64,000 nucleotides of DNA, from positions 217,883 through 281,882 of the forward strand of contig JBARSF010000058.1 of the NCBI GenBank assembly GCA_049644605.1. Direction: 5' to 3'. How positions within the stretch are numbered: the first letter of the stretch is position 1; each line of letters begins with the position of its first letter. The notes beneath the pieces are model-generated. The model did no database searches. It saw nothing but the letters and a program-made list of their open reading frames with translations, and was not told the DNA's origin. A program made the position numbers and the translations under genes. Shown piece by piece: positions 1-17,110 of this stretch. The stretch comes from Anaerolineales bacterium. Lineage in GTDB: Bacteria; Chloroflexota; Anaerolineae; Anaerolineales; UBA11858.

Positions 1-397
1 GTGGCGGGGATTTGCCTTGCCGAGACTTCAGGCAAAGTTCAGCCCCCTCGTTTCCAGTCTGATCCTCGGGGTTCTTTGGGCAGTTTGGCATGCACCGGCG
101 AAATTCGGGGGAATCGAAGCCACTAGCCTTGCTGATACACTCGTCGAGTGGGTTCTGATTGTACTGGTCACCATAATATTCACGTGGCTCTTCAACCGCA
201 CAAAAGGCAGTATTCTAGTAACTGCGCTGATTCATCCAGCCATGAACACGAATGGCAATTTTCTCACCGCGTCAATCGGTGCCCTCATTCTCCTCTTGGT
301 TTTCACTGTGTTTGTTATCGTAATCGACAGAATGTGGATAAGACCACCTTCTGACAATCCTGCTATCTATCAAGTGAATACGCAGGAAGCTGCCTAA
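1..397 (+). CDS. CPBP-family intramembrane glutamic endopeptidase (CAAX/Abi type), C-terminal part; 5' end outside window
   Basis: The frame is open from nt 2 (WRGFALPRLQ...). LWAVWHAP and ALIHPAMN motifs and hydrophobic segments are typical of CPBP proteases. Confidence 0.75.
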   Translation, partial: WRGFALPRLQAKFSPLVSSLILGVLWAVWHAPAKFGGIEATSLADTLVEWVLIVLVTIIFTWLFNRTKGSILVTALIHPAMNTNGNFLTASIGALILLLVFTVFVIVIDRMWIRPPSDNPAIYQVNTQEAA

Positions 398-517
398 CAC
401 CGGCTCCACAAGACGGGGCTTGTGCCCCGAGAGTCTGCGGCGCGCTTTCTGAGTTTGATGCCATAATGACCATGTCGGCTCGCCAAGGCCGCCCCGCCGG
501 TGAGCCATCCGTTAGGC
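392..517 (+). repeat. attC-like site 1
   Basis: GCCTAAC (392-398, contains the TAA stop of the upstream ORF) ... GTTAGGC (511-517). GGCTC(C)AC near the left end is complementary to GTGAGCC near the right end with one bulged base. CGGGGC/GCCCCG are also complementary. Confidence 0.7.
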
Positions 518-673
518 GGTATATATTCCTCTAACAGAATAACTCCAAAAGAATTCATCATTTGTGTTAATAACCTTCTCTTAAATGATGCAGTGCTATT
601 CTCTTGTTGCCCACAATGTATCTTACAATATACTTTCGAATGTAATGTATAACAATCATAATGACAGATATAC

Positions 674-702
674 TTGACAATATGTAAGTAATATTGTATA
701 CT
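674..702 (+). promoter_or_regulatory. Sigma70-like promoter with embedded inverted-repeat operator for the XRE cassette
   Basis: TTGACA (674-679), 17 nt, TATACT (697-702). ACAATAT-N7-ATATTGT inverted repeat (677-697) fills the spacer. Confidence 0.65.
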
Positions 703-703
703 G

Positions 704-925
704 ATGTCCATGAAAGTACCAACGAGAATGAACCTCAGACTTGCAAGAGTTGAGAAAAATCTCTCCCAGCAAAAACTTGCTGACAAAGTGAACGCGAGTA
801 GACAAACTATCGGGCTTATTGAAAAGGGAGGGTATAACCCAACACTTGACTTGTGTATAAGAATTGCGAAAGCATTAGATAAGACCCTTGATTACCTTTT
901 TTGGGAGGATAGCGAAAATGAGTAA
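704..925 (+). CDS. Short XRE-family HTH transcriptional regulator
   Basis: LSQQKLADKVNASRQTIGLIEKGGYNPTLDLCIRIAKAL is a canonical HTH_3 pattern. Alternative starts at 710 (possibly leaderless) and 728. Confidence 0.85.
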   Translation: MSMKVPTRMNLRLARVEKNLSQQKLADKVNASRQTIGLIEKGGYNPTLDLCIRIAKALDKTLDYLFWEDSENE

Positions 926-1370
926 AAAATTCTTAAGATTAGATGAACGGGGAAATCGCATCGTTCGTCAAATATCTTCCGTTTTGTACTTCATTACCGT
1001 GTATTCATTGATCGGATTTCAGCTGTACCGTCAGTTTGTGCTCAATCAACCATCTGAAGAGTGGAATGACATCGCTATCCTCATCTCGATTAATGTCATT
1101 GTTTGGATTGGTGCATTGTTGTACTTGAGCGGTGTTGTCAATCCCAAGGTTGTAAGAATGCGCTACCTAATCCTCGGGTTCACTGGCTTAGTAATATTTG
1201 GATCGGCTTTTACCATCTTTAAATACTCAGTCCTCCTGGACCGGACACTGAGTATGAGTTTGATATTGGATAGTTTCTTTATGGTATTAAAAATTAGCGC
1301 GCTTCTAGTAGGTTTATGGGGACTCCTGGCATATCTTGGAAACAAGAGAATGGAGAAGCGAATTAGCTAA
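918..1370 (+). CDS. Membrane protein partnered with the XRE regulator
   Basis: ATG at 918 overlaps the regulator stop (ATGAGTAA). About 4 hydrophobic helices. The track ORF 888-1370 was trimmed to the first ATG. Confidence 0.65.
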   Translation: MSKKFLRLDERGNRIVRQISSVLYFITVYSLIGFQLYRQFVLNQPSEEWNDIAILISINVIVWIGALLYLSGVVNPKVVRMRYLILGFTGLVIFGSAFTIFKYSVLLDRTLSMSLILDSFFMVLKISALLVGLWGLLAYLGNKRMEKRIS

Positions 1371-1483
1371 ATGGATCGTGCAGGATGGTCAAGGAATAGA
1401 TACTTCGTAGTTGTATCCGCATGTACTAGCGACCACCTGGACATAGATATGCTAACGGAATTGTTGAATCGCTAGTCAATACT

Positions 1484-1606
1484 GCCTAACGTCTCACTGG
1501 AGTGGACCCCGCGCACAGCGCAAGTTGGAATTGAGCCTGGTGCTTCGGCGCCAGGCATTTTCATTGTAAGATCAAAGCCTGGTCGCTCAGCTCAAGACCG
1601 TTAGGC
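1484..1606 (+). repeat. attC-like site 2 (subfamily B)
   Basis: GCCTAAC (1484-1490) ... GTTAGGC (1600-1606). Internal hairpin GCCTGGTGC-TTCG-GCGCCAGGC (1535-1556). The right arm GGTCGCTCAGCTC..CCGTTAGG is shared with the site at 6910-7053. Confidence 0.65.
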
Positions 1607-1679
1607 GCGTAGATAAACGACGATACTTAATCACAATTGCATCCATTATCTTTACAGCTATAATTGTTAGGGAGGCTCT

Positions 1680-2045
1680 GTGAATAAGCCAAGTTTTAAC
1701 ACTATTGACGACTACATATCATTCTTTCCGGAGCATGTTCAAAAAAAACTAACCGAACTCAGAGTTTTAATAAGACAAATAGCACCAGATGCTCAAGAAA
1801 AGATAAGCTATCAAATGCCAACATTCTACCTTAATGGTAATCTGGTTCATTTTGCAGCTTATGCAAAGCATATTGGATTCTATCCAACACCGAGCGGAAT
1901 TGCTAAATTCAAGCGAGAATTGTCAGGATATAAGCACGCCAAAGGATCCGTTCAATTCCCGCTGGATAGAGCATTGCCTATTGAACTTATTAAAAAGATT
2001 GTTAAATATCGAGTTGAAGAAAATATCAAGAAGGGCAAGAGGTAG
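1680..2045 (+). CDS. DUF1801 / YdhG-like protein
   Basis: GTG start after GGGAGG. TIDDYISFFPEHVQKKL...ISYQMPTFYLNGNLVHFAAYAKHIGFYP is typical of the family. Confidence 0.75.
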   Translation: MNKPSFNTIDDYISFFPEHVQKKLTELRVLIRQIAPDAQEKISYQMPTFYLNGNLVHFAAYAKHIGFYPTPSGIAKFKRELSGYKHAKGSVQFPLDRALPIELIKKIVKYRVEENIKKGKR

Positions 2046-2121
2046 TAATTCAAGTCAGTTACTGGTGGCTGAATGACCTAGGCCTTTATACTACAAACTG
2101 GGCCTACGATGATTGAGTACC

Positions 2122-2221
2122 ACCTAACCCCCGCTCCACCCGAAAGCCGGTTAAGACCGAGTACCGGGGACGGGGGACCGGAAAGGCAAGGCCCGGCTGC
2201 GGGTGAGCTCATCCGTTAGCC
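2122..2221 (+). repeat. attC-like site 3 (best-formed)
   Basis: ACCTAAC ... GTTAGCC. Pairing runs CTAAC/GTTAG, then 4-6 unpaired nt, then GCTC(C)ACCCG/CGGGTGAGC with a bulged C, then AGCCGG/CCGGCT, then a ~40-nt terminal loop. Confidence 0.75.
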
Positions 2222-2267
2222 TGCTGGAATGGAAATGTAAATTGTTTTGTAAACGCCTCATTGGTTG

Positions 2268-3095
2268 ATGATTAAAATGTCTAGAATCGATCTGAACGCT
2301 CGGTGTCTACTGATATTTCTATTACTGTACCTGTTTGTCCCAGCATGCAACTTCCGGGAGCCAATGGATACTGTCCCTGTTAATACCGGAACCCAACAAA
2401 TTACGGAAACCCTTTCACTTTATCCTTCCGAAACAGAAACGAGCACCCCTGCCACTGATAACAGTTCTGAACCTTTTCTTTGCCAGGAAGGATTCGAAGA
2501 TCGAGAGCTACGAGAGCCTTATCAGCGATATGATGGTAAACCTCGGTACACTTTGTCGGAAGAAGAGCTTATCGTGTACCTTGATTTGATGGGCATTGAA
2601 TCGATTTGCTTTCCTGTGCAGTTTGGTGCACCTTTCGTGAATGTTGATTGGAACAGTATCGAGGATCCACCTGCAACGGGGCGGATGGTCAGCATTGGAT
2701 TTGAAGAGTTATATTCCGGAGGTGGCTGGAGTAGGGGCTATCTCGTGTATGCCACTTATGATTTCTCTATCGGAACGGAGTACGATGTTTTCGCCACTCG
2801 GGCAGATTTAGAACAGATTACAGCTCAAGCTAATCCAAATCTAATCAATATTGGTGGTGTTGAAGGTTTTATCCGCTATTTTCCAAGTTTTCCCATGGGG
2901 ATGCAGGTCATTTCACAAACCTACATAATCCCATTCGAGGACTACTATATTGCGGCCGTGCTTACGCTGGGAGCTTACGATCCGGCTGTTATTAATGAAG
3001 TGCTACGAGAGATGGAGGAAGGCAAACACCCGGACCTCATAGACGAGAATATCAAACTGATGGAGATCCTTGTGTCTTCTATTAGGTTTAAATAA
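2268..3095 (+). CDS. Hypothetical lipoprotein
   Basis: Signal peptide with lipobox-like LFVPAC, then a Thr/Ser/Pro-rich linker. No recognisable domain. Confidence 0.6.
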   Translation: MIKMSRIDLNARCLLIFLLLYLFVPACNFREPMDTVPVNTGTQQITETLSLYPSETETSTPATDNSSEPFLCQEGFEDRELREPYQRYDGKPRYTLSEEELIVYLDLMGIESICFPVQFGAPFVNVDWNSIEDPPATGRMVSIGFEELYSGGGWSRGYLVYATYDFSIGTEYDVFATRADLEQITAQANPNLINIGGVEGFIRYFPSFPMGMQVISQTYIIPFEDYYIAAVLTLGAYDPAVINEVLREMEEGKHPDLIDENIKLMEILVSSIRFK

Positions 3096-3111
3096 CATCG
3101 ACCTACATTAG

Positions 3112-3182
3112 ATCTAACCCCCGCTGCACCTGACTCTTCGACTGCGCGCTCCGATCAGAGCAGGTGTGCTTATCCGGTATGT
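3112..3182 (+). repeat. attC-like site 4 (short form, variant right end)
   Basis: ATCTAACCCCCGCTGCACCTG ... CAGGTGTGCTTATCCGGTATGT. The arms GCTGCACCTG/CAGGTGTGC are complementary. The right end reads GGTATG instead of GTTRRRY. Confidence 0.55.
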
Positions 3183-3226
3183 ATTTGGAGTTACGATTAT
3201 TCAGATGATTTCGATGGGATGGGAAA

Positions 3227-3454
3227 ATGAATAAAGTGATCCAAAAGCTTGATGGCGCCAATATGGATATTGATCTTGTCACTCCTCATGACCAGATTAC
3301 CTGGCAGCAAGATTCATGTCCATGGAATATTGCCGAGGATACTTCTCAGCATAAATGCGCTGTAAAGAATATATCTATATGTCCCTTTTTTTGTGGAATA
3401 GAGTTTCAAGATTATATCTTGTGCTGTTACCCGCACAAGAATCCACTCAATTAG
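3227..3454 (+). CDS. Small Cys-rich hypothetical protein (75 aa)
   Basis: Sole ORF of its cassette. 6 Cys (CPW..HKC..ICPFFC..CC). No family recognised. Confidence 0.45.
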   Translation: MNKVIQKLDGANMDIDLVTPHDQITWQQDSCPWNIAEDTSQHKCAVKNISICPFFCGIEFQDYILCCYPHKNPLN

Positions 3455-3512
3455 ACGAGTAAGGAATAAAGACCAATCATCAATGGGATCTAACAATAAA
3501 AGAGCACCAGAA

Positions 3513-3697
3513 ATATAACCCCCGCTCCCATTCGACAGACCTGTCCGGAGTAGGCCGAAGGTCGTACCGAAGGGCTCAGGATCTGCGGCACCTGACTGCC
3601 TGGGGAGGACAGGAGACCGGGGACTGAAGAACAGAAACTCACGCCAGGCGGCAGGTGCCCTTCACCAGCTCAGGAGAGTTAAGCTCATCCGTTAAGC
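3513..3697 (+). repeat. attC-like site 5 (long form)
   Basis: ATATAACCCCCGCTCCC ... AAGCTCATCCGTTAAGC. Internal stem GGCACCTGAC-TGCCTGG / CCAGGC-GGCAGGTGCC. Clearly homologous to the sites at 5439 and 8209. Confidence 0.65.
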
Positions 3698-3721
3698 GCG
3701 GAAAAATAAAAGGAACATAAA

Positions 3722-4492
3722 GTGGAAGAAAAGGATAAAAAGCTCAAACCGCTGGGATGGGGATCATCGATAACAATATTTCTTGTAACGGCAATAATAT
3801 TGCGAGTAACCCATTACATCTTTGTGCCCGCATATACATTGGCGACTGGAAAACCTTATTTGGTTGGGTATCTGATTGGTTGGGTAAGCACCATGTTCTT
3901 GTTCTTTTTGACTTCTTTGATTGTATACAGGCTTGATCGCCATCCAATAAACATGAAAGGATTTGTTCCTCGATATCGGCTAGACAGGATGAAAAAAGCA
4001 GATTGGTTATGGACCCTGGCAATGATTGTATTCGCCATCATATCTCTATATGCACTTTCTTTCACCCAAACAATTCTGAAATCAGTAGCTTTCTTTTCAC
4101 CACACCCTGCATTTCCTCCCGATATGGTTGATATGGCTAATAAACTTACCCCTGGAGTTCTGTTTGAAATGCCTCTCCAGGGAAAATGGTGGCTTGTTGC
4201 AGTTTATTTTATTGGATGGATTCTCAATATTTTGGGAGAAGAATTTTGGTACAGGGGATGGATGTTGCCAAGACAAGAGATAGCCTTTGGGAAATATGCC
4301 TGGGTTATTAATGGGTTTATGTTTAACTTTCAACATACCTTTCAGCCCTGGAATATGTTAGCGATGTTGCCGGGATCTTTGTTCCTGTCATATGCCGTCC
4401 AACGGCAGCGGAAAACCTGGATGAGTATCATCTGGCATGGACTATTGAATATCAGCTTATTGATATTTATCATCCAGGGAGTTATCGGATAG
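3722..4492 (+). CDS. CPBP-family intramembrane glutamic endopeptidase
   Basis: GTG start. EEFWYRGWMLPRQ (EExxxR), FNFQH and IWHGLLN motifs. Multi-pass membrane protein. Confidence 0.8.
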   Translation: MEEKDKKLKPLGWGSSITIFLVTAIILRVTHYIFVPAYTLATGKPYLVGYLIGWVSTMFLFFLTSLIVYRLDRHPINMKGFVPRYRLDRMKKADWLWTLAMIVFAIISLYALSFTQTILKSVAFFSPHPAFPPDMVDMANKLTPGVLFEMPLQGKWWLVAVYFIGWILNILGEEFWYRGWMLPRQEIAFGKYAWVINGFMFNFQHTFQPWNMLAMLPGSLFLSYAVQRQRKTWMSIIWHGLLNISLLIFIIQGVIG

Positions 4493-4512
4493 CTATCTCG
4501 TAAAGAATTCGC

Positions 4513-4997
4513 GCTTTACCCCCGCTGCAGCGGACGCAGGGGAACGCAGCTCGTAGAGACAGCTTGAACTTCTGGAGGTCGGGAGCAATCTGTAATAGAA
4601 AGACAGTGTCCTTCCTCGCCCTGGCTGTGGTGATTGGGTGCGCGCCATATCAGCCTACGGCAACGCCGGTGCCGCTCTCCGCTGCCAACACCCCCGGCAC
4701 CGACCTCGGACTCTGGCTTTCCGTGGGGCTGGGCGATCCTGCCTGTGGCATTTCTGGCAGCGATAGTTGGCTGGATAGTCATCCGCTGAAGACGGTCCAC
4801 TCGGTGATAGCTCCCTAGAGAACGGTGTGTTCCGCGGAATGCTCAAGCGTCCTGCCCCTCACAGGCATTGTAGATGGTCCGGGACTCCCTGGGCAGCCTC
4901 CACCGGTCTCGCGGCAACCCCGCATGACCATTACCAGACCCGCTCAGCAGGTGCCCTTCGCAGAATGTGGAGGTTTCGCAAAGCTCTTCCGTTATAC
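4513..4997 (+). repeat. Aberrant ~485-bp GC-rich element bounded by attC-like left and right ends
   Basis: Left end GCTTTACCCCCGCTGCAGCGG matches other left ends with TAAC changed to TTAC. Right end CAGCAGGTGCCCTTCGCAG...AAGCTCTTCCGTTATAC matches other right ends. The ~400 bp between them is visibly much more GC-rich than the flanking genes. Confidence 0.4.
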
Positions 4998-5021
4998 ATC
5001 TATAAAAAAGGAAGCCAGACA

Positions 5022-5444
5022 GTGAAACAAACAATCGTACATATCGCATTAGTTGTTAGGGATTATGATGAAGCTATCGAATTCTACACAAAAAAACTCA
5101 ACTTTGTTTTGGTAGAAGACACCTATCAGCCAGAACAAAACAAACGGTGGGTGGTTGTCTCTCCGCCAGGATCAAAAGGCACAACGTTGCTTTTAGCAAG
5201 AGCCTCAAATCCCGAGCAGGAATCATTTATTGGTAATCAAACAGGTGGACGAGTATTTCTATTCTTAAATTCCGATGATTTTTGGCGAGATTATAATGAT
5301 ATGCGTGGTAAGGGTATTAAATTTATAAGAGAACCAAAACAAGAAGAGTATGGCATGGTGGCTGTTTTTGAAGATTTATATGGTAATTATTGGGACCTGC
5401 TCCAGTTGAATGAGAATAATTCAGTTACCAATAGAGGTGTATAA
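5022..5444 (+). CDS. VOC-family protein (glyoxalase/bleomycin-resistance/dioxygenase fold)
   Basis: GTG at 5022 after AAAAAGGAAG. IVHIALVVRDYDEAIEFYTKKLNF...FEDLYGNYWDLLQ. The track ORF 4827-5444 runs 5' into the GC-rich repeat and was trimmed. Confidence 0.85.
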   Translation: MKQTIVHIALVVRDYDEAIEFYTKKLNFVLVEDTYQPEQNKRWVVVSPPGSKGTTLLLARASNPEQESFIGNQTGGRVFLFLNSDDFWRDYNDMRGKGIKFIREPKQEEYGMVAVFEDLYGNYWDLLQLNENNSVTNRGV

Positions 5445-5585
5445 CACCCGCTCCCTTTGGCGAGCTAAGGATCTGCGACACCTGACCACCTTTGATGGAC
5501 TGGGGACGGAAGACGGAGGACTGAAATAACAAGCCCGGCAGCAGGTGCCCTTGACAGGATGCTTCGCGAAGCTCTTCCGTTCAGC
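5439..5585 (+). repeat. attC-like site 7 (long form)
   Basis: GTATAACACCCGCTCCC (contains the TAA stop of the VOC gene) ... GCAGCAGGTGCCCTTGACAGGATGCTTCGCGAAGCTCTTCCGTTCAGC. Contains the 12-bp palindrome GCTTCGCGAAGC. Confidence 0.65.
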
Positions 5586-5650
5586 AGATGATGTGCACTA
5601 TTGAATGGTTAATCGGCTCAGAAGATAATTTCTCTATAAGTGAGGATACT

Positions 5651-6853
5651 ATGATATTCAGGAAATTGTTTCCCCAATTAGTTGGTCTGATATTGATTGT
5701 AGTGTTTTTGCCAGCCTGCGCCGCACCGCAACTAACTCCCACTCCAGAATCATTTACCAGCACTCCTGCACCAACCGCCACCCCAACACCACAACCTGAA
5801 TGGAAACCCGAAGAAAGTGATTTTAATGCCGCATTAGAAGAAGTATTAGATCCCTTTTTTTCCATATATATTGAGAAAGTAGGTATTACAGGATTTTCAG
5901 TAGGTGTTGTTAAGGACAACAAAATTGTTTATGCTAAAGGTTTTGGCGTAAGAGATTTCGAAACCCAAGAACCTGTTACTGCATATTCTTTATTCCATAT
6001 GGCGTCCATTTCTAAGCCGTTTGTGGCAACTGCAATTATGCAGCTTGTAGAAGAAGGAAAAATTATCCTTGATGAATCGCTTGTCACCTATCTTCCCTAT
6101 TTCCAACTTGATGATGAACGCTATAACGAGATAACAGTCCGACAAATGCTCAGTCATGTATCAGGTATGCCACGTGCCATGGATTATCATTGGGATCAAC
6201 CTGAGTATGATGAAGGGGCATTGGAGCGGTATGTCCGAAGTTTGGCAGATCAAAAACTACTTTTTACACCGGGCGATGAATTTTCTTACAGCAATGTGGC
6301 ATATGAAGTTTTGGGGGATGTCATAGCCAAAGTATCTGGTCAGCCGTTTGAAAATTACGAGAAAGAAAATATATTGGCCCCGCTGGGAATGGATCAAAGC
6401 ACTTTCTTAAAAGAAGAAATACCCCCAGAACTCGAAACGACACCTCATCTTGACGAAGGTGTTGTCAGCGAAGTTTATCCATACAATCGTCCTCACGCGC
6501 CAAGTTCTACCTTGCATTCAAATGTTTTAGAGATGTCTTATTGGGCAATCGCTAACATGAACCGGGGCACATTCAATGATATGAAAATACTGAGTGAATC
6601 CAGCTATGATCTCCTCTGGACACCACACGTACAAGTGCAAACTGGTGTATCGATGGGCTTGGGATGGTTTCTGAAAAGGTCTGAGGAAGGGGATTGGGTT
6701 TATCATGATGGTGGAGATGTTGGTTTTCGGACATCATTTACTATGCTGCCAGAAGAATCAATAGCTTTAACCATACTTGCCAATGATGAACGATTAAACC
6801 CAAGGTCAATGGCCGATATTGTCATAGGGTTAATCCATGATATTGAACCATAG
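5651..6853 (+). CDS. Serine hydrolase, beta-lactamase/PBP4*-like family, lipoprotein
   Basis: ATG 5651 after GTGAGGA. Lipobox FLPAC, Pro/Thr linker, SxxK (ASISK) and YxN (YSN) motifs. Confidence 0.85.
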   Translation: MIFRKLFPQLVGLILIVVFLPACAAPQLTPTPESFTSTPAPTATPTPQPEWKPEESDFNAALEEVLDPFFSIYIEKVGITGFSVGVVKDNKIVYAKGFGVRDFETQEPVTAYSLFHMASISKPFVATAIMQLVEEGKIILDESLVTYLPYFQLDDERYNEITVRQMLSHVSGMPRAMDYHWDQPEYDEGALERYVRSLADQKLLFTPGDEFSYSNVAYEVLGDVIAKVSGQPFENYEKENILAPLGMDQSTFLKEEIPPELETTPHLDEGVVSEVYPYNRPHAPSSTLHSNVLEMSYWAIANMNRGTFNDMKILSESSYDLLWTPHVQVQTGVSMGLGWFLKRSEEGDWVYHDGGDVGFRTSFTMLPEESIALTILANDERLNPRSMADIVIGLIHDIEP

Positions 6854-6909
6854 ATTGTCTTCTCAAGCCATTTTCATTTCAGTGGAAGAGCAAAATGGAT
6901 AAAAAGCCC

Positions 6910-7053
6910 GCCGAACAAATCCGATGAAGCAGCCTGCCTCCCACCGCGATATTTCGGGGTTCTGCGCGATTTGGCAGTAAAGTTGGATTATTAGGGTGCT
7001 GGAAATGCTAGAGCAGGATCGAACCCCGGTCGCTCAGCTCGTAGCCATTAGGT
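6910..7053 (+). repeat. attC-like site 8 (subfamily B, degenerate right core)
   Basis: GCCGAAC ... GGTCGCTCAGCTCGTAGCCATTAGGT. The right arm aligns with site 2. The right end reads ATTAGGT (G to A). The left boundary is uncertain. Confidence 0.5.
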
Positions 7054-7096
7054 TGCATTTTGTATAATTATCAGAAGAATAATAAAGGAATTAAAT

Positions 7097-7591
7097 ATGG
7101 AATCCTTTCATGATTATATGAAGGAATATAAAAAACAGCTAAAGAAGGGTGACATCATAAAGGCATATCAGGGCCTGATGGAATATTTTGGACAGTTAAG
7201 ATCGTATTTTAATAATAAATATCCTGATTATTCCGTTTCTAGCAGTATTTATTATGGATATATGGATATGACATATTTTTCTATCTTTCCAGAATCATTA
7301 AAACGTCGGAGTCTGAAAATTGCATTGGTTTTTGTTCACAACAAATTTAGATTTGAAGTATGGTTAGCGGCAAAAAACAAGAATGTTCAAACAAAATTCT
7401 GGAAATTGATAAAAGAAAGCGATTGGAATAAATACCACATAACACCAACTACAAGAGGTGTTGATTCCATAATAGATCACATTTTAATTGACAATCCAGA
7501 TTTTAGTGATTTGGATGCTTTAACAAAACAAATCGAGAGAGGGACCTTAAAATTTATCAAGGATGTTGAGGGCTTCTTAGCTAAACATTAA
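7097..7591 (+). CDS. Hypothetical protein (164 aa)
   Basis: Good RBS (AAAGGAA), AT-rich coherent ORF, no domain recognised. Confidence 0.6.
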   Translation: MESFHDYMKEYKKQLKKGDIIKAYQGLMEYFGQLRSYFNNKYPDYSVSSSIYYGYMDMTYFSIFPESLKRRSLKIALVFVHNKFRFEVWLAAKNKNVQTKFWKLIKESDWNKYHITPTTRGVDSIIDHILIDNPDFSDLDALTKQIERGTLKFIKDVEGFLAKH

Positions 7592-7650
7592 AACTGACTC
7601 TGGTGCTGACCTCCTCCCGCCGAAAAGATTGCATCTACCACCCCTCTTTG
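7588..7650 (+). repeat. Possible left-half attC remnant
   Basis: TTAAAAC overlaps the stop of the 7097-7591 ORF. CCTCCTCCCGCCGAAAAGATT resembles CCTGCCTCCCACCGCGATATTT in the left part of site 8. No matching right end follows. Confidence 0.3.
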
Positions 7651-7905
7651 CATATACGCCGCATAATTATTAATTGATATCATTCTAAAAATAAATTCGT
7701 TAATATGTAAAAATATGTTTGAATCATGCGTAATACCAATAATTAAAATAAGGCAGAGTCGCGGTTCTGTAAGGAGAGAAATATTTTCGACTGTCATGTG
7801 AATTGATCTAATGTCTATATTCACCAGACCCTCATGGCGCTTCGTTTGGTCGGACAGAGGATATAATGTTAGGAGGAGGAGAAAATAAACCCTTAAACCA
7901 AAAAC

Positions 7906-8208
7906 ATGAAAACAATTAAAGTAATAAATCGAGGGGATTGGAGAGAATGGCTCGCAGCCAATCACGATAAAGAGACAGAAATCTGGCTGGTTTACTACAA
8001 AAAGAAAACTGGCAAGACAGGTGTTGGATATGATGCTTCCGTAGAAGAAGCACTGTGTTTTGGGTGGATTGATAGTCTTATCAAGAGGTTAGATGACACG
8101 AAATATGCCAGGAAGTTCACGCCGAGAAAAGTGAACAGCCAGTGGTCACCCTCGAATAAAAAGCGCGTAAAGCAGCTGATTAAAGATGAGTTGATGACGG
8201 ATAACTAA
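7906..8208 (+). pseudogene. YdeI/OmpD-associated family protein, N-terminal ~100 aa only (truncated)
   Basis: WREWLAANHDKETEIWLVYYKKKTGK...EEALCFGWIDSLIKRLDD matches the family N-terminus. Family members as I recall are roughly twice this length. The ORF stops exactly where a half attC begins. Confidence 0.6.
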
Positions 8209-8264
8209 GCCCCGGCGGCGGGTGCCCTTCGCAAGCTCAGGATAGTTAAGCTCACCCATTAGGC
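8209..8264 (+). repeat. Right-half attC remnant
   Basis: GCCCCGGCGGCGGGTGCCCTTCGCAAGCTCAGGATAGTTAAGCTCACCCATTAGGC aligns with the right ~55 nt of site 5. It has no left half and abuts the premature stop of the truncated ydeI-like ORF. Confidence 0.55.
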
Positions 8265-8401
8265 TGTTTAAAAATTTTCAGCCATGCAGGAAAATCAATC
8301 AATAGAATCCAAATTAAAGGGTTAGGGTATTCTGAAGAATGGTATAGAAAGGGATTGTAAGTCATTAAGCACCCACAATCCCAATTCTAGCGGCTTTTCT
8401 G

Positions 8402-8965
8402 TCACGATCTTGCCCGTTGGCGGCGGGCTTCCATTTCTGCTAATTCCCGGCGTATCTGTCGAATCCACTTAAGTTCAACCTCGTACTGAGCGATCCAATT
8501 CTTCTGGATCATATCCCACAGATATTTTTCACGTGATGTCCGCTCCGGCATATTCGGTCTGCTATCAGCTTGCACTCTCACAAAAAACAACTTTTCACCA
8601 ACTGCGTTCAAATACGCTTCAAGCAGTTCATCTATTTCCTCTGCTTTCAGACAATCGGCCCACAGCAGCTGGTTCAAAAACGATTTTTTTGAGCGCGGCG
8701 GCTCCGGCTCACTTCCAACCCATTTTCTCAACGCTTGTATACCTTCGTCGGTAATCGTATAAACATGACGATCTGGGGCGCCGATCTGGTCTTCAATAGT
8801 TTTGGTAACCCATTCATCATTATGAAGTTGGACCACAGCTCGATAAATCTGGTTGTTGTTAGCTGACCAGGGAAGTGTTTCGGAATCAGCAATTATTTTT
8901 TTAAGATCATAACCAGTCATTGGCTGCCAGCTCAAGTATCCCAAGATAACATATTTGATGGACAT
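8402..8965 (-). CDS. PadR-family transcriptional regulator (with C-terminal domain)
   Basis: YVILGYLSWQPMTGYDLKKII...NQIYRAVVQLHNDEWV. ATG 8965 preceded by AAGGAG. The track ORF start 8983 was trimmed. Confidence 0.85.
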   Translation of the reverse strand: MSIKYVILGYLSWQPMTGYDLKKIIADSETLPWSANNNQIYRAVVQLHNDEWVTKTIEDQIGAPDRHVYTITDEGIQALRKWVGSEPEPPRSKKSFLNQLLWADCLKAEEIDELLEAYLNAVGEKLFFVRVQADSRPNMPERTSREKYLWDMIQKNWIAQYEVELKWIRQIRRELAEMEARRQRARS

Positions 8966-8997
8966 CGGTAACTCCTTGTACAATTATGTTATATTTA

Positions 8998-9021
8998 CCA
9001 TATGTTACACATAACATATGG
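8998..9021 (-). promoter_or_regulatory. Candidate PadR operator (perfect 10-bp inverted repeat)
   Basis: CCATATGTTA-CACA-TAACATATGG contains ATGT-N8-ACAT, the pattern reported for PadR operators. It lies between a TTGACA (minus strand, 9025-9030) and the padR start. Confidence 0.65.
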
Positions 9022-9067
9022 TTTTGTCAACCCATAGTTTGAAAATGAATATTCAAAAGATCAAGAG

Positions 9068-9196
9068 GATTAACCCTCCGTTCAGGACAGCCATTCGATA
9101 CGCCCATTCGCTACGCTCAGGGCTACTCAGGACCGGGGGCCGAGGACCGAAGACCGGACACTCACACCAAGCGGCAAGTGAGTTCTTTCGGTAGAT
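9068..9196 (+). repeat. attC-like site 9 (variant right end)
   Basis: GATTAACCCTCCG ... GCGGCAAGTGAGTTCTTTCGGTAGAT. The central GGACCGGGGGCCGAGGACCGAAGACCGGA block is homologous to the sites at 3513, 5439 and 10072. The right end has GGTA instead of GTTA. Confidence 0.5.
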
Positions 9197-9240
9197 GTTT
9201 TTTCTGAAAATATATCAGTATTGCAAAGAATATTAAATTA

Positions 9241-9270
9241 TTCGGGGCAGGTTTAAAAACCTGCCCCGAA
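9241..9270 (-). terminator. Hairpin terminator after the 9322-9756 gene
   Basis: TTCGGGGCAGG-N8-CCTGCCCCGAA, 50 nt downstream of the stop on the minus strand, followed by an AT-rich tract. Confidence 0.55.
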
Positions 9271-9321
9271 AATCACCCAGCATCACTGAAGGGGCCGTGC
9301 CATAATCACCCCCCCGTTAAT

Positions 9322-9756
9322 TTACAGCTGATAAATTTCTTTAATAATCGGCAAGATATATTTAAGCAACCGATCAGGATGGGCTGGTTTTCCTTTGAGA
9401 AGGATGTCGTGTATTTCAAAATCGCGACCAGTACCACAAACCCATACTTCGTCATCTAAGTCAAGGGTTAAAGGCAGGTCTGACACAGAGGATACTTTTG
9501 CAGGATGGCCTTTTATGTCATCAACAACAACGGTGTCCCCGCCTGTTTCGAGTACGACTGCTCGAAGCCAACGCCAAACGATTTCTGGTGGATTGGCATC
9601 CATGTTGATAGCAACCAGTTGGTCTGGTTGAATCTTAATCCGTTTTTGAACAACTAGCGAAGAAAAAACTGCTTCAAAGGTAGAGTTATCGGGCACTGTT
9701 TTTACACTGCTACCATTTTCGTTACAAGTTAACACAAGAGCTAATTTTAGTTTCAT
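9322..9756 (-). CDS. Hypothetical protein (144 aa)
   Basis: RBS AAGGAGA upstream, followed by a hairpin terminator. No domain recognised. Confidence 0.6.
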   Translation of the reverse strand: MKLKLALVLTCNENGSSVKTVPDNSTFEAVFSSLVVQKRIKIQPDQLVAINMDANPPEIVWRWLRAVVLETGGDTVVVDDIKGHPAKVSSVSDLPLTLDLDDEVWVCGTGRDFEIHDILLKGKPAHPDRLLKYILPIIKEIYQL

Positions 9757-9778
9757 GGGAAATCTCCTTGAAATTACC

Positions 9779-9806
9779 CACGACTTTATGAATCAAAAAA
9801 GTCGTG
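9779..9806 (-). promoter_or_regulatory. Inverted repeat in the 5' leader of the 9322-9756 gene
   Basis: CACGACTTT-N10-AAAGTCGTG lies immediately upstream of the RBS. A third partial copy GCGACTTTT is at ~9835. Confidence 0.35.
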
Positions 9807-10071
9807 AGTTTATGTGCCACACCCGCGACTTTTACAATAATAAGAGGTTTACTATGTATAAACCAAATAGATCAGTTAGATCACATCAAATCGCCTTTAA
9901 CAGATGAGGCAAGGTTGGATGGATTACAATTATGTGTATGTTCTTCAAAGAAACGCTACCCATAGGCAACCGCCTTCCCCGAAAAGCGCTGCAAGTGATA
10001 AAACAAAATCGAGATCGCGGACAAATTATAGCATGATTCCAATACCGATTATTATTTTCAGATTATGAAAC

Positions 10072-10191
10072 ATCAAACCCACCCTGCCCTTCGATACGCC
10101 CTTTCGCTGCGCTCAGGACTGCTCAGGACGGGTGACGGAGGACGGAGGACCGGAACCTCGCCCCCGGCGGCAAGTAGATCTTCCGGTATGC
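10072..10191 (+). repeat. attC-like site 10 (variant right end; last clear site)
   Basis: ATCAAACCCACCCTGCCCTTCGATACGCC ... CGGCGGCAAGTAGATCTTCCGGTATGC. The left 60 nt are closely similar to site 9. Confidence 0.5.
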
Positions 10192-10242
10192 TGTAAAATA
10201 CCTCAGTTTTGAATAGCAATATTTAGCAATCAAGGATGTATC

Positions 10243-11121
10243 GTGAGTATTGGTTCAAGGGTTACCCAGGCAGTTTTTAAACTAACAAATATAAAAAAGT
10301 GGGTCTTTCGTCAATTTATGAATCCTCCCAGAAATACAGGCACTATGGATAGCGATAAGTTTAAGAATAATCTTGATCTTATATCTTGGACAGTTGATGG
10401 ATTTAAACTTTTATCAGTTAATCCACCCAACTCAAATAACAAACAGGTTATATTTCTCCACGGGGGAGCCTATCTACTAGAGGCTACAGCTTTTCATCAA
10501 AAATTTATGGAAACTCTGGCTAAAGAATATGGACTGACAATAACATTTATCGATTATCCTAAAGGGCCGGAGCATACTTTTCGAACCACACATGATGTGG
10601 TCCTTAAAGCCTATCTTGAAATACTGCATAAAAATCCAGGGAATGAATTTTACCTAGTGGGAGATTCAGCTGGGGGAGGTTTAGGTCTCGCACTTTTACA
10701 AGAGTTGCGGGATAAAAGAATCACTCCTTTTCCCAAAAAAACAGTTCTGGTTTCTCCCTGGTTGGATTTAACTATGAGTAATGAGAGTATTCAGGATTAT
10801 GAATCTAAAGACCATCTTTTGCCTGTTAAGGGATTAATTTATGCAGCCAAATTGTATTCTGGTGGTGAGGATTTAAGAAATCCTTTGCTTTCCCCACTTT
10901 ATGGAGATATGTCAAACCTGGGAGTTATTAAATTATTCTTCGGGACAAATGAGGTTCTTTACCCTGATTGCTTGGAGTTAACGAAAAAAATATCAAGTTC
11001 CCAGGGAAGTTCGATAGAGTATATTATTGGAGAGAATATGATGCATGACTGGATTATTTTCCCGTTTAAGGAATCAAAAAAAGGGGTATCGCAGATAGCA
11101 CAATTTTTAATTTCTGATTAA
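10243..11121 (+). CDS. Alpha/beta hydrolase, fold-3 (hormone-sensitive-lipase-like esterase)
   Basis: GTG start. HGGAY oxyanion motif and GDSAGG nucleophile elbow. Confidence 0.85.
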   Translation: MSIGSRVTQAVFKLTNIKKWVFRQFMNPPRNTGTMDSDKFKNNLDLISWTVDGFKLLSVNPPNSNNKQVIFLHGGAYLLEATAFHQKFMETLAKEYGLTITFIDYPKGPEHTFRTTHDVVLKAYLEILHKNPGNEFYLVGDSAGGGLGLALLQELRDKRITPFPKKTVLVSPWLDLTMSNESIQDYESKDHLLPVKGLIYAAKLYSGGEDLRNPLLSPLYGDMSNLGVIKLFFGTNEVLYPDCLELTKKISSSQGSSIEYIIGENMMHDWIIFPFKESKKGVSQIAQFLISD

Positions 11122-11249
11122 TATTTTTTTGTTTATCGAAGGGGATCGGGGATTATATTGAGTATTCAATAAGCTCATCTGACAGGTTTCTGAAAAAAAG
11201 AAAATGAGCCTGAAGGCGATCCGACTACATTTAATTAGGAGCATGATTG

Positions 11250-16226: not shown

Positions 16227-16862
16227 ATGTTGCGGTCCCTGATACTCATCATTCTTGGAATTCCTGTAATAGCTCTTCTCCTGCATACAATCACCAGAAT
16301 CATTCGTTATTTCTATAAATTTCCCATACCGGAATTTGCTGCCAACCTGATTGATAATTCTCTGCGAAGACGCATCCAGCCTCCGGATGAAATGCCAATC
16401 CGACATGGCATCACACCCGGCATGACTGTTCTTGAAATTGGACCGGGCAACGGGACCTATACAATAGCCGCCGCCAGGAAAATCGGCGATTCAGGAAAGT
16501 TAATCACCATTGATATTGAACCAAAGATGATCCAACGGGTACAAAAGCGGGTTCAAAAGGAGGGGATAAGCAACATTGAAGCCCGGGTAGGGAATGTTTT
16601 TGATCTTCCCTTTGAGGATAACTCCTTTGATCTTGTGTACATGATAGCGGTGATTGGGGAAATTCCTACACCGGAAATGGCAATGAATGAGTTTTTCCGT
16701 GTATTAAGTCCCCAAGGATCACTGGTGTTCAGTGAGATTCTAATGGATCCGGATTATCCTCGCTCCAAAGCATTAACCCGTTTGGCTGAAAACGCTGGGT
16801 TTCAGCTGGATAAAAAAACCGGCGGCTTCTTTTCATATACACTTATTTTTACGAAGGTTTAA
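16227..16862 (+). CDS. Class I SAM-dependent methyltransferase with N-terminal TM segment
   Basis: VLEIGPGNGTYT (motif I) and DLVYMIAVIGEIP. Confidence 0.85.
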   Translation: MLRSLILIILGIPVIALLLHTITRIIRYFYKFPIPEFAANLIDNSLRRRIQPPDEMPIRHGITPGMTVLEIGPGNGTYTIAAARKIGDSGKLITIDIEPKMIQRVQKRVQKEGISNIEARVGNVFDLPFEDNSFDLVYMIAVIGEIPTPEMAMNEFFRVLSPQGSLVFSEILMDPDYPRSKALTRLAENAGFQLDKKTGGFFSYTLIFTKV

Positions 16863-16873
16863 GGGAATCTAGG

Positions 16874-17110
16874 ATGAACCAATTTCGGAGCGCAGGTTAT
16901 TTCTTTACAACTTTATTGATGTATCTGGGAATTCCCTTATTGGGATGGGGACTTGGTGGCCTGGGCGGATTTTTCCAGCTTGGTCCCCGTCTGGCCTATG
17001 GTTTGATTGATTTTTTTCTTGACGTGAAAATCGCCGGGTTCAAACGGAGAGAATCACCAACGTTGAAGCCTGAGCGGGGGATGTTTTTGATCTTCCCCGG
17101 GGCTCTTTGA
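16874..17110 (+). pseudogene. Remnant: ICMT-like N-terminus fused to a degenerate fragment of the adjacent methyltransferase gene
   Basis: The N-terminal ~47 aa resemble ICMT-family N-termini (LGIPLLGWGLGGLGGFF). nt ~17036-17100 align by eye (most positions matching) with nt ~16548-16612 of the 16227-16862 gene. Confidence 0.5.

Follow-up and report, generated by a model that had tools for sequence, protein, structure and literature searches.

The first 11 kb of the window, by which is meant the whole stretch analysed here (64,000 nt of Anaerolineales contig JBARSF010000058.1, positions 217,883 to 281,882), hold short, unrelated genes followed by GC-rich imperfect palindromes, and the question raised by this locus is whether these palindromes are attC sites, the recombination sites of integron gene cassettes, and where the corresponding integron stands today. 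Nt 1 to ~11,190 are very probably the promoter-distal part of an integron cassette array in an Anaerolineae-like Chloroflexota chromosome, as proposed in an earlier note made from the sequence alone; this reading is supported because a covariance model of attC matches the sites, the same site family adjoins bona fide integron integrases (IntI), and the homology of the first cassette gene, CPBP1, breaks at GTTAGGC.

Evidence that the sites are attC

The check that the earlier note had called for, a search with an attC covariance model, was made with R2, built from 15 class-1 attC sites (aadA1/2/5/16, aadB, aac(6')-29a/b, blaVIM-2, arr-3, aacA4, dfrA1/5/12/14/27) of integrons taken from plasmid records by tblastn with IntI1; R2 describes the R and L helices with the bulged base, and no window sequence entered its training. 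With filters off and both strands searched (128 kb), its top three window matches were 2122-2221 (21.2 bits, E 0.0045), 1484-1606 (15.3 bits, E 0.18) and 392-517 (11.7 bits, E 1.7), all on the + strand and with exact ends; the following two, at ~10 bits, were located elsewhere and unconvincing. The decisive point is the placement of these three matches on predicted sites. Regarding the calibration of the model, the held-out class-1 sites gcuE and gcuF gave about 37 bits, and 222 kb of unrelated control DNA from metagenome-assembled genomes (MAGs) gave a single match, of 15.8 bits. R2 left eight window sites unscored, namely seven other full or composite sites and a half-site; it is small, with rough E-values, and its silence on the sites of 129-185 nt is not decisive because it penalises long variable regions and inserts. 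A first model, R1, with truncated attC ends, had matched nothing, its window length being unable to span real variable regions, and a scan of the window at Rfam gathering thresholds returned 0 matches.

The window opens inside the CPBP1 gene, and its left side is extended by metagenome scaffold L001 (3,988 bp; L-numbers denote sequence stretches retrieved for comparison, i.e. metagenome or MAG contigs), which is 99.9% identical to window 1-3,230 and adds 760 bp leftwards. L001 holds the entire CPBP1 gene, preceded by another attC (L001 12-108; GCCTAAC-CCCC-GCTCCAGCGG … CCGCTGAGC-TTATCA-GTTAGGC) that R2 scores at 25 bits. The homologues of CPBP1, 68-85% identical, occur in Anaerolineales, Anaerolineae and other Chloroflexota, and its relatives are all from Chloroflexota MAGs. 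When CPBP1 is compared with L004, L005, L006 and L010, the homology starts exactly at GTTAGGC, and the sequence before it is unrelated between genomes; this break is a cassette boundary. Downstream of the CPBP homologue, an attC of the type found at 392-517 is kept in L010 and degenerate in L005. R2 found no attC in the MAGs with CPBP relatives (L004-L017); on inspection, diverged or other-type sites were seen near the gene in L005, L006 and L010. As for L006 (Chloroflexi HGW-10), its CPBP homologue is flanked by different direct repeats, GTCCTGATAAATCATC…CAGCTTCAACTACGC (8700-8790 and 11020-11210), and a 135-nt attC-like site unscored by R2 (GCTTAAC … GTTAGGC, 9838-9972) lies ahead of it; these elements may represent a second attC type in that genome.

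The third line of evidence comes from the attC family in other contigs. JGI and whole-genome shotgun (WGS) metagenome contigs were searched with the family pattern, TAACCCCCGCT, 50-80 nt, AGCTNWTCNGTTA, and the end pattern was found in at least 120 stretches, the first 80 of which (315 kb) contain 142 sites scored by R2; compared along its full length, the site at 2122-2221 shows 88-92% identity to attCs of the IntI-linked contig L072 and of many others. All 48 loci with two or more sites (by a looser regular expression) carry them on a single strand. An IntI homologue occurs in 8 of 120 loci, with 47-53% identity to IntI1 (seven full-length, and one, in L128, cut by the contig end), and in all eight the sites, which are co-oriented, have the gene upstream of them and in divergent orientation. 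Four of these proteins were scored with NCBIfam TIGR02249, 'integron integrase', and reached 446-463 bits (cut-off 265); the closest named relatives of one family IntI are annotated 'integron integrase [Chloroflexi / Chloroflexota bacterium]', at 75-76% identity. In Chloroflexi MAG contigs, one of 1.3 Mb, intI lies beside NUDIX-glmS-gatC-gatA, and on its other side are short one-strand genes separated by TAACCCCCGCTCCACC sites. The position of intI is the same in four contigs (L154-L157), next to NUDIX, glmS, gatC, gatA, HAD hydrolase and PEMT-like genes, which points to a perhaps ancient integron platform that this lineage has kept by vertical descent. No synteny was detected by tblastx between the window and the intI-side flanks of L154-L157, and a scan of viral contigs with the family pattern gave 0 matches.

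Regarding the structure of the family, 127 members were aligned by fitting them to the model, so that the alignment is biased to its structure; in it, 98% of the cells of the L helix are paired, eight pairs changed on both sides (one pair being CG in 55, UA in 43 and GC in 12), and none of 500 shuffles reached the covariation score. In 115 of 127 members the extrahelical L'' base is C, hence G on the bottom strand, which is also the case in classical attC. At the outer end of the R boxes, three positions are paired in only ~60% of the cells, a value that is expected if the last six R' bases derive from the neighbouring cassette after recombination. The spacer and L boxes have a conserved sequence, CCCC-GCTCCACC … GGTGAGC-TCATCC, distinct from that of class 1 cassettes.

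The array and the state of its sites

Nt 1-11,190 contain all the co-oriented GC-rich sites, i.e. ten full sites, one half-site and one remnant. In a whole-window repeat search and a short-word BLAST of each site, the cross-matches were restricted to this part and to a single orientation; nt 11,200-64,000 hold no family copies on either strand, and the remaining matches there are chance ones of 11-13 nt (E 0.1-0.8). The number of full sites, their co-orientation and their confinement to the first ~11 kb, as the earlier note had them, are thus borne out. The sites are clustered and placed 3' of a short open reading frame (ORF), with a short leader before the next one: a unit has an attC at its end and, ahead of it, one or two genes that are short and unrelated. 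The mean GC content is 60% in the sites and 42% in the cassette ORFs, which confirms the contrast noted earlier, and the spacing described then holds as well: the TAA stop falls within R'' in the first CPBP gene (395-397) and in the VOC gene (5442-5444), the remaining sites begin 17-114 nt past a stop codon, and 25-74 nt separate the site from the next ORF start at eight sites. The left ends read GCCTAAC (392 and 1484), ACCTAAC (2122), ATCTAAC (3112), ATATAAC (3513), GTATAAC (5439), GCCGAAC (6910), GATTAAC (9068) and ATCAAAC (10072), and the right ends GTTAGGC (511 and 1600), GTTAGCC (2215), GTTAAGC (3691), GTTATAC (4991), GTTCAGC (5579), ATTAGGT (7047) and ATTAGGC (8258), every quoted end being where it had been placed; in the list of sites, the coordinates stood, and three right ends are GGTA, not GTTA (3178, 9190 and 10184).

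The features of the proximal part, to nt 3,697, are the following (coordinates, strand, description).

1..397, +, 3' part of CPBP1, Rce1-like intramembrane protease (Pfam PF02517, E 1.6e-12; full length 339 aa)
392..517, +, attC S1, intact, GCCTAAC / GTTAGGC, L box GCTC(C)AC / GTGAGC (R2 11.7 bits)
704..1370, +, two-gene cassette: XRE helix-turn-helix (HTH) regulator, 704/710-925, and DUF6773-like membrane protein, 918-1370
1484..1606, +, attC S2, intact, second sequence type (…GGTCGCTCAGCTC…CCGTTAGGC; R2 15.3 bits, E 0.18)
1680..2045, +, DUF1801 cassette gene (Pfam PF08818, E 2.5e-15)
2122..2221, +, attC S3, intact, type member of the Chloroflexota family (CTAACCCCCGCTCCACCCG … CGGGTGAGCTCATCCGTTAG; R2 21.2 bits, E 0.0045)
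2268..3095, +, putative lipoprotein gene, 275 aa (no Pfam match; also gene-called at 275 aa on L001)
3112..3184, +, attC S4, short, crossover triplet GGT (unscored by R2; fold no better than shuffles)
3227..3454, +, Cys-rich gene, 75 aa (no Pfam match; gene-called in L159/L160)
3513..3697, +, attC S5, long, 185 nt, intact family ends (TAACCCCCGCT … AAGCTCATCCGTTAAGC; weak L-box pairing; unscored by R2)

The distal part, nt 3,722-11,187, continues as follows.

3722..4492, +, CPBP2 cassette gene, Rce1-like (Pfam PF02517, E 5e-13)
4512..4556, +, S6a, degenerate mini-site of 45 nt (TTTAC CCCC GCTGCAGCGG … CGCAGC … GTAGAGA; author's reading, unscored by any model)
4606..4818, +, small ORF of 64% GC that includes a lipobox-like VIGC; uncertain as a gene (ORF list, by-eye reading)
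4819..4997, +, S6b, long site, right arm alone conserved (…CAGGTGCCCTTCGC…AAGCTCTTCCGTTATAC; left boundary uncertain)
5022..5444, +, VOC/glyoxalase-fold cassette gene (Pfam PF00903, E 4e-23)
5439..5585, +, attC S7, long, 147 nt, GTATAAC … CCGTTCAGC (GTT core intact; poor R and L pairing)
5651..6853, +, beta-lactamase-fold serine hydrolase with a lipoprotein-type leader (Pfam PF00144, E 9e-67; start 5651 in L159)
6910..7053, +, attC S8, second sequence type, triplet ATT (CCATTAGGT; right arm 78% identical to S2; fold no better than shuffles)
7097..8208, +, DUF7000 gene (7097-7591; Pfam DUF7000, E 5e-60), AT-rich siteless gap and 100-aa ORF (7906-8208)
8203..8264, +, S9h, long-type attC reduced to its right half, triplet ATT (82-90% identical to the S5 right arm)
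8402..8983, -, PadR-family regulator, reversed cassette gene (Pfam PF03551, E 1.3e-11)
9068..9196, +, S10, decayed attC, triplet GGT, mutated L boxes (81-85% identical to S11)
9322..9756, -, reversed cassette gene, 144 aa, no family (no Pfam or PADLOC match)
10072..10190, +, S11, decayed attC, R'' ATCAAAC, triplet GGT (81-85% identical to S10)
10243..11121, +, alpha/beta hydrolase (Abhydrolase_3), last cassette gene (Pfam PF07859, E 5e-36)
11170..11187, +, right-arm remnant (AAGCTCATCTGACAGG vs AAGCTCATCCGTTAAGC), right end of the array (sequence; no family match further right)

An intact site reads R'' (RYYYAAC), a spacer of 4-5 nt, L'' with one extra C, a variable region, L', a spacer of 6 nt and R' (GTTRRRY). 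Four sites have these full canonical boxes, three in the window (392-517, 1484-1606 and 2122-2221) and the L001 site just left of it, with R''/R' pairs at 392/511, 1484/1600 and 2122/2215; the complete canonical structure is limited to these four. The L''/L' helix with its extrahelical base, GCTC(C)AC / GTGAGC, is found in S1, S3 and the L001 site, and it is weak or absent in S5, S7, S8, S10 and S11. S5 (3513-3697) and S7 (5439-5585) keep the family ends and the cores (3513/3691 and 5439/5579), pair poorly in the L box and look like long composites. Among the 11 sites that keep a right end, five have a mutated crossover triplet: GGT in 3112-3184, 9068-9196 and 10072-10190 (at 3178, 9190 and 10184), and ATT in 6910-7053 and in the half-site 8203-8264 (at 7047 and 8258). 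The half-site and the remnant 11170-11187 are truncated. The integrity that the earlier note had implied was overstated, about half of the sites being mutated. In the family at large, a sample skewed to well-kept sites, 175 of 178 members have GTT as the triplet following the L'-spacer motif, and one of the three non-GTT triplets is ATT; at S4, GGTATGT faces GTTATGT in a relative on L044, the difference falling exactly at that T.

The bottom strand folds better than shuffles only at S1 (z = -2.6), where the minimum free energy (MFE) fold shows the R helix and the L helix with its bulge, and at S2 (z = -2.0), where it is closed via the R boxes. Unconstrained MFE folding gives the attC shape only for these two and the L001 site; at 2122 a competing G/C-rich fold prevails, and the long and distal sites, S7 included, fold no better than shuffles.

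Regarding the kinship among the sites, identity is 82-90% between 3636-3697 and 8203-8264, 81-85% between 9090-9179 and 10086-10175, and 78% between 1570-1605 and 7017-7052, the last pair being the right arm common to S2 and 6910-7053. The left motif TAACCCCCGCT is present at 2125, 3114, 3516 and 4518. The interior of S5 resembles L051, its right arm is 90% identical to 8214-8254, and S7 resembles both S5 and S6b. S10 and S11 have lost the R and L boxes of the intact 86-nt attCs of L094 and L103, to which their interiors are 91-93% identical. A motif, TTCGCTNCGCTCAGG, recurs in the variable regions of attCs (window 9090-9140 and 10086-10135; class-1 attCs of dfrA27 and dfrA12), and an intergenic palindrome in an Anaerolineales MAG (L004 3225-3285), itself unrelated, has it too.

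The '4516-4997 site' of the earlier note is better taken as a composite: the mini-site at 4512-4556, then an ORF that is small and GC-rich, then a long site whose right end alone is conserved. The left arm of the mini-site fits the family motif (S4 and a further query, S0, match 4518-4534), the cores AAC/GTT having become TAC/GTA, and the right arm of S6b matches 5539-5581, 3651-3663 and 8221-8233. The stretch 4500-5000 has 61% GC amid genes of ~42% GC, with a possible 70-aa ORF at 4606-4818, and it may be a cassette of a higher-GC donor or non-coding.

As for the cassette genes, the families named in the earlier note were confirmed by Pfam: Rce1/CPBP twice, HTH_3 (E 8.5e-16) with its DUF6773-like neighbour (E 8e-4, under the Pfam cut-off), DUF1801, Glyoxalase/VOC, Beta-lactamase fold, DUF7000, PadR and Abhydrolase_3. 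PADLOC, run on ten cassette proteins, returned generic HTH matches only. The action of the beta-lactamase-fold hydrolase (5651-6853) on beta-lactams is not deducible from the fold alone. A promoter-like TTGACA-17 nt-TATACT was read at 674-702, directly ahead of the XRE gene; with the transcript start at or near ATG 710, this cassette seems to have its own promoter and a leaderless mRNA. The product of the 100-aa ORF (7906-8208) is DUF8412 by precomputed Pfam; no attC lies between the DUF7000 gene and this ORF (within 7592-8264), and the ORF ends at the directly adjoining half-site, so a deletion seems to have removed the 3' end of its gene together with the left half of the attC at 8203-8264. 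Two of the 13 cassettes have reversed genes. A 17+17 nt palindrome, operator-like, lies upstream of the PadR gene (8985-9018), and a perfect 14-bp GC-rich hairpin, terminator-like, lies just 3' of the 144-aa gene (9241-9270); both reversed cassettes look as if they bring their own regulatory signals.

IntI recombines the folded bottom strand of attC between the G and the TT of the GTT triplet, and excised cassettes are reinserted at attI. In this array, the bottom strand of an attC would fold to a hairpin whose extra base, a bulged G, would mark it for the IntI tyrosine recombinase; the cut would fall between A and C of AAC (between G and TT on the top strand), and the cassettes would leave as circles and be reinserted at attI, beside intI and the Pc promoter. 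Because intact proximal sites grade into mutated distal ones, the far end may no longer be mobilisable: the distal half would no longer be efficiently excised and would be becoming fixed in the chromosome. The array as a whole looks sedentary and partly fossilised, since triplets are mutated, distal folds are poor and the cassette order is constant. The triplet changes could even be selected, locking useful cassettes into the Chloroflexota chromosome and turning integron cargo into ordinary genes, instead of being random decay; the basis of this rather improbable reading is the occurrence of three independent GTT>GGT and two GTT>ATT changes vs 3 non-GTT in 178. If true, the array would be a snapshot from an active proximal to a fixed distal part.

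Position of the integrase and competing explanations

Judging from how the sites are oriented, the place of intI, attI and Pc would be left of the window. The earlier note had placed the integrase there, and this claim stands as far as it can be followed: no IntI-like sequence was found in the 64-kb window (tblastn with IntI1), the orientation fits and a further attC lies to the left; intI itself was not reached. The upstream cassette adjoining the L001 attC was not found in any retrieved locus, and contigs of the same population, of 0.8-4 kb, break at attC sites. On the other side, ordinary chromosomal genes follow right of 11,190 (WD40 lipoprotein, methyltransferases, cytochrome b, ABC transporters, acyl-CoA synthetases), and the named relatives of one of them are Chloroflexi/Anaerolineae MAG proteins at 76-77% identity; with those of the family IntI and of CPBP1, they support the Chloroflexota-like host that had been suspected. 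In this right flank, a 63-nt direct repeat (16548-16610 and 17035-17097, 83% identical and 487 nt apart) has one copy inside a methyltransferase gene (16227-16862) and the other just past it, and it may be a partial duplication.

Four points weigh against the interpretation as an integron cassette array. Just three window sites are scored by R2, and weakly (21, 15 and 12 bits, where held-out class-1 sites reach ~37); the window array shows neither intI nor attI nor Pc, the leftward view being the 760 bp of L001; the cassette order is identical in four other assemblies, with no direct sign of ongoing shuffling; and the inactivity of the distal sites is deduced from sequence alone.

The alternative that survives best is that the array is a true CALIN (a group of attC sites with no integron integrase), i.e. 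that the genome has no linked intI and the cassettes are the fossil of integrase loss or rearrangement, and it is a serious possibility, at somewhat less than an even chance. CALINs are common (PMC4889954), and such an orphan array would fit the 64 kb devoid of an IntI-like ORF, the five mutated triplets among 11, the half-site, the remnant, the poor distal folds and the cassette order shared by four other assemblies; however, the four sites nearest the left end are intact and the array extends further in that direction, a pattern expected with a working intI/attI there, and complete integrons with attCs of this family are present in related Chloroflexota genomes. The array shows at least 13 sites; its left side is cut and its right flank chromosomal, with an order common to four assemblies; a sedentary chromosomal integron is defined by >19 attC sites or by presence in all genomes of a species (Cury 2016, PMC4889954). 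With a linked intI in this genome the array would be a sedentary integron, with a lost one a CALIN.

It is very improbable that the sites are generic intergenic palindromes (repetitive extragenic palindromes, REP, miniature inverted-repeat transposable elements, MITE, or transcription terminators) merely resembling attC: they are indeed GC-rich imperfect palindromes between genes, and some interiors have a widespread TTCGCTGCGCTCAGG-type motif found also in the unrelated L004 palindrome, but bona fide attCs, that of dfrA27 among them, also contain the TTCGCTGCGCTC motif, the other 53 kb have no such element, all copies have a single orientation, the RYYYAAC/GTTRRRY ends and the asymmetric L box are matched by a class-1-trained model, the same family flanks IntI genes in eight contigs, and dispersal in both orientations without a link to IntI is contradicted at the family level.

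Comparison with known systems

The integron cassette array of this window is a clean, well-delimited example from Chloroflexota. With it, a conserved attC family (CTAACCCCCGCTCCACC … GGTGAGCTCATCCGTTAG) is defined that is abundant in public metagenome contigs; since Chloroflexi are unmentioned in the study of taxon-specific attCs consulted (PMC8352920), this family could help to assign environmental cassettes to Chloroflexota. The earlier description of the attC family and the cassette pool as poorly described was overstated: integrons in Chloroflexi have already been reported (Cury 2016, PMC4889954), and NCBI names their integrases. The presence of intact and core-mutated sites in one array offers a natural substrate set for the requirements of IntI; the understanding of how integrons work is unchanged by it.

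Sedentary chromosomal integrons, such as the Vibrio cholerae superintegron with its VCR repeats and those of Xanthomonas, are likewise chromosomal, with many unrelated and mostly uncharacterised cassette genes, a conserved lineage-specific attC family (here, 2122-2221 is ~90% identical across contigs) and a few reversed cassettes with their own regulators; in relatives of the window array, the likeness extends to an intI at a conserved position (NUDIX-glmS-gatCA). The window array differs in its Chloroflexota host, in having at least two attC sequence types plus long composites, and in that nearly half of its sites are mutated. As in a CALIN (Cury et al. 2016, PMC4889954), the window contains two or more co-oriented attC sites clustered together, and no intI is within reach; unlike in a CALIN, the left end of the array lies outside the window, so the absence of intI is not established.

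As for the cassettes of class 1 mobile integrons (aadA, dfrA, aacA4), they share with the window sites both the arrangement of the boxes and the place of the extrahelical base; a model trained on class-1 sites recognises the intact ones, and the family-linked IntIs are 47-53% identical to IntI1. The window array differs from them in having no resistance cassettes and no Tn402/Tn21 context, and in the distinct sequence of its spacer and L box. In conclusion, the array is a well-preserved but unexceptional representative of a known system, and what is new here are the mutated crossover triplets, the poor folds of the long and distal sites and the cassette order shared with four other assemblies.

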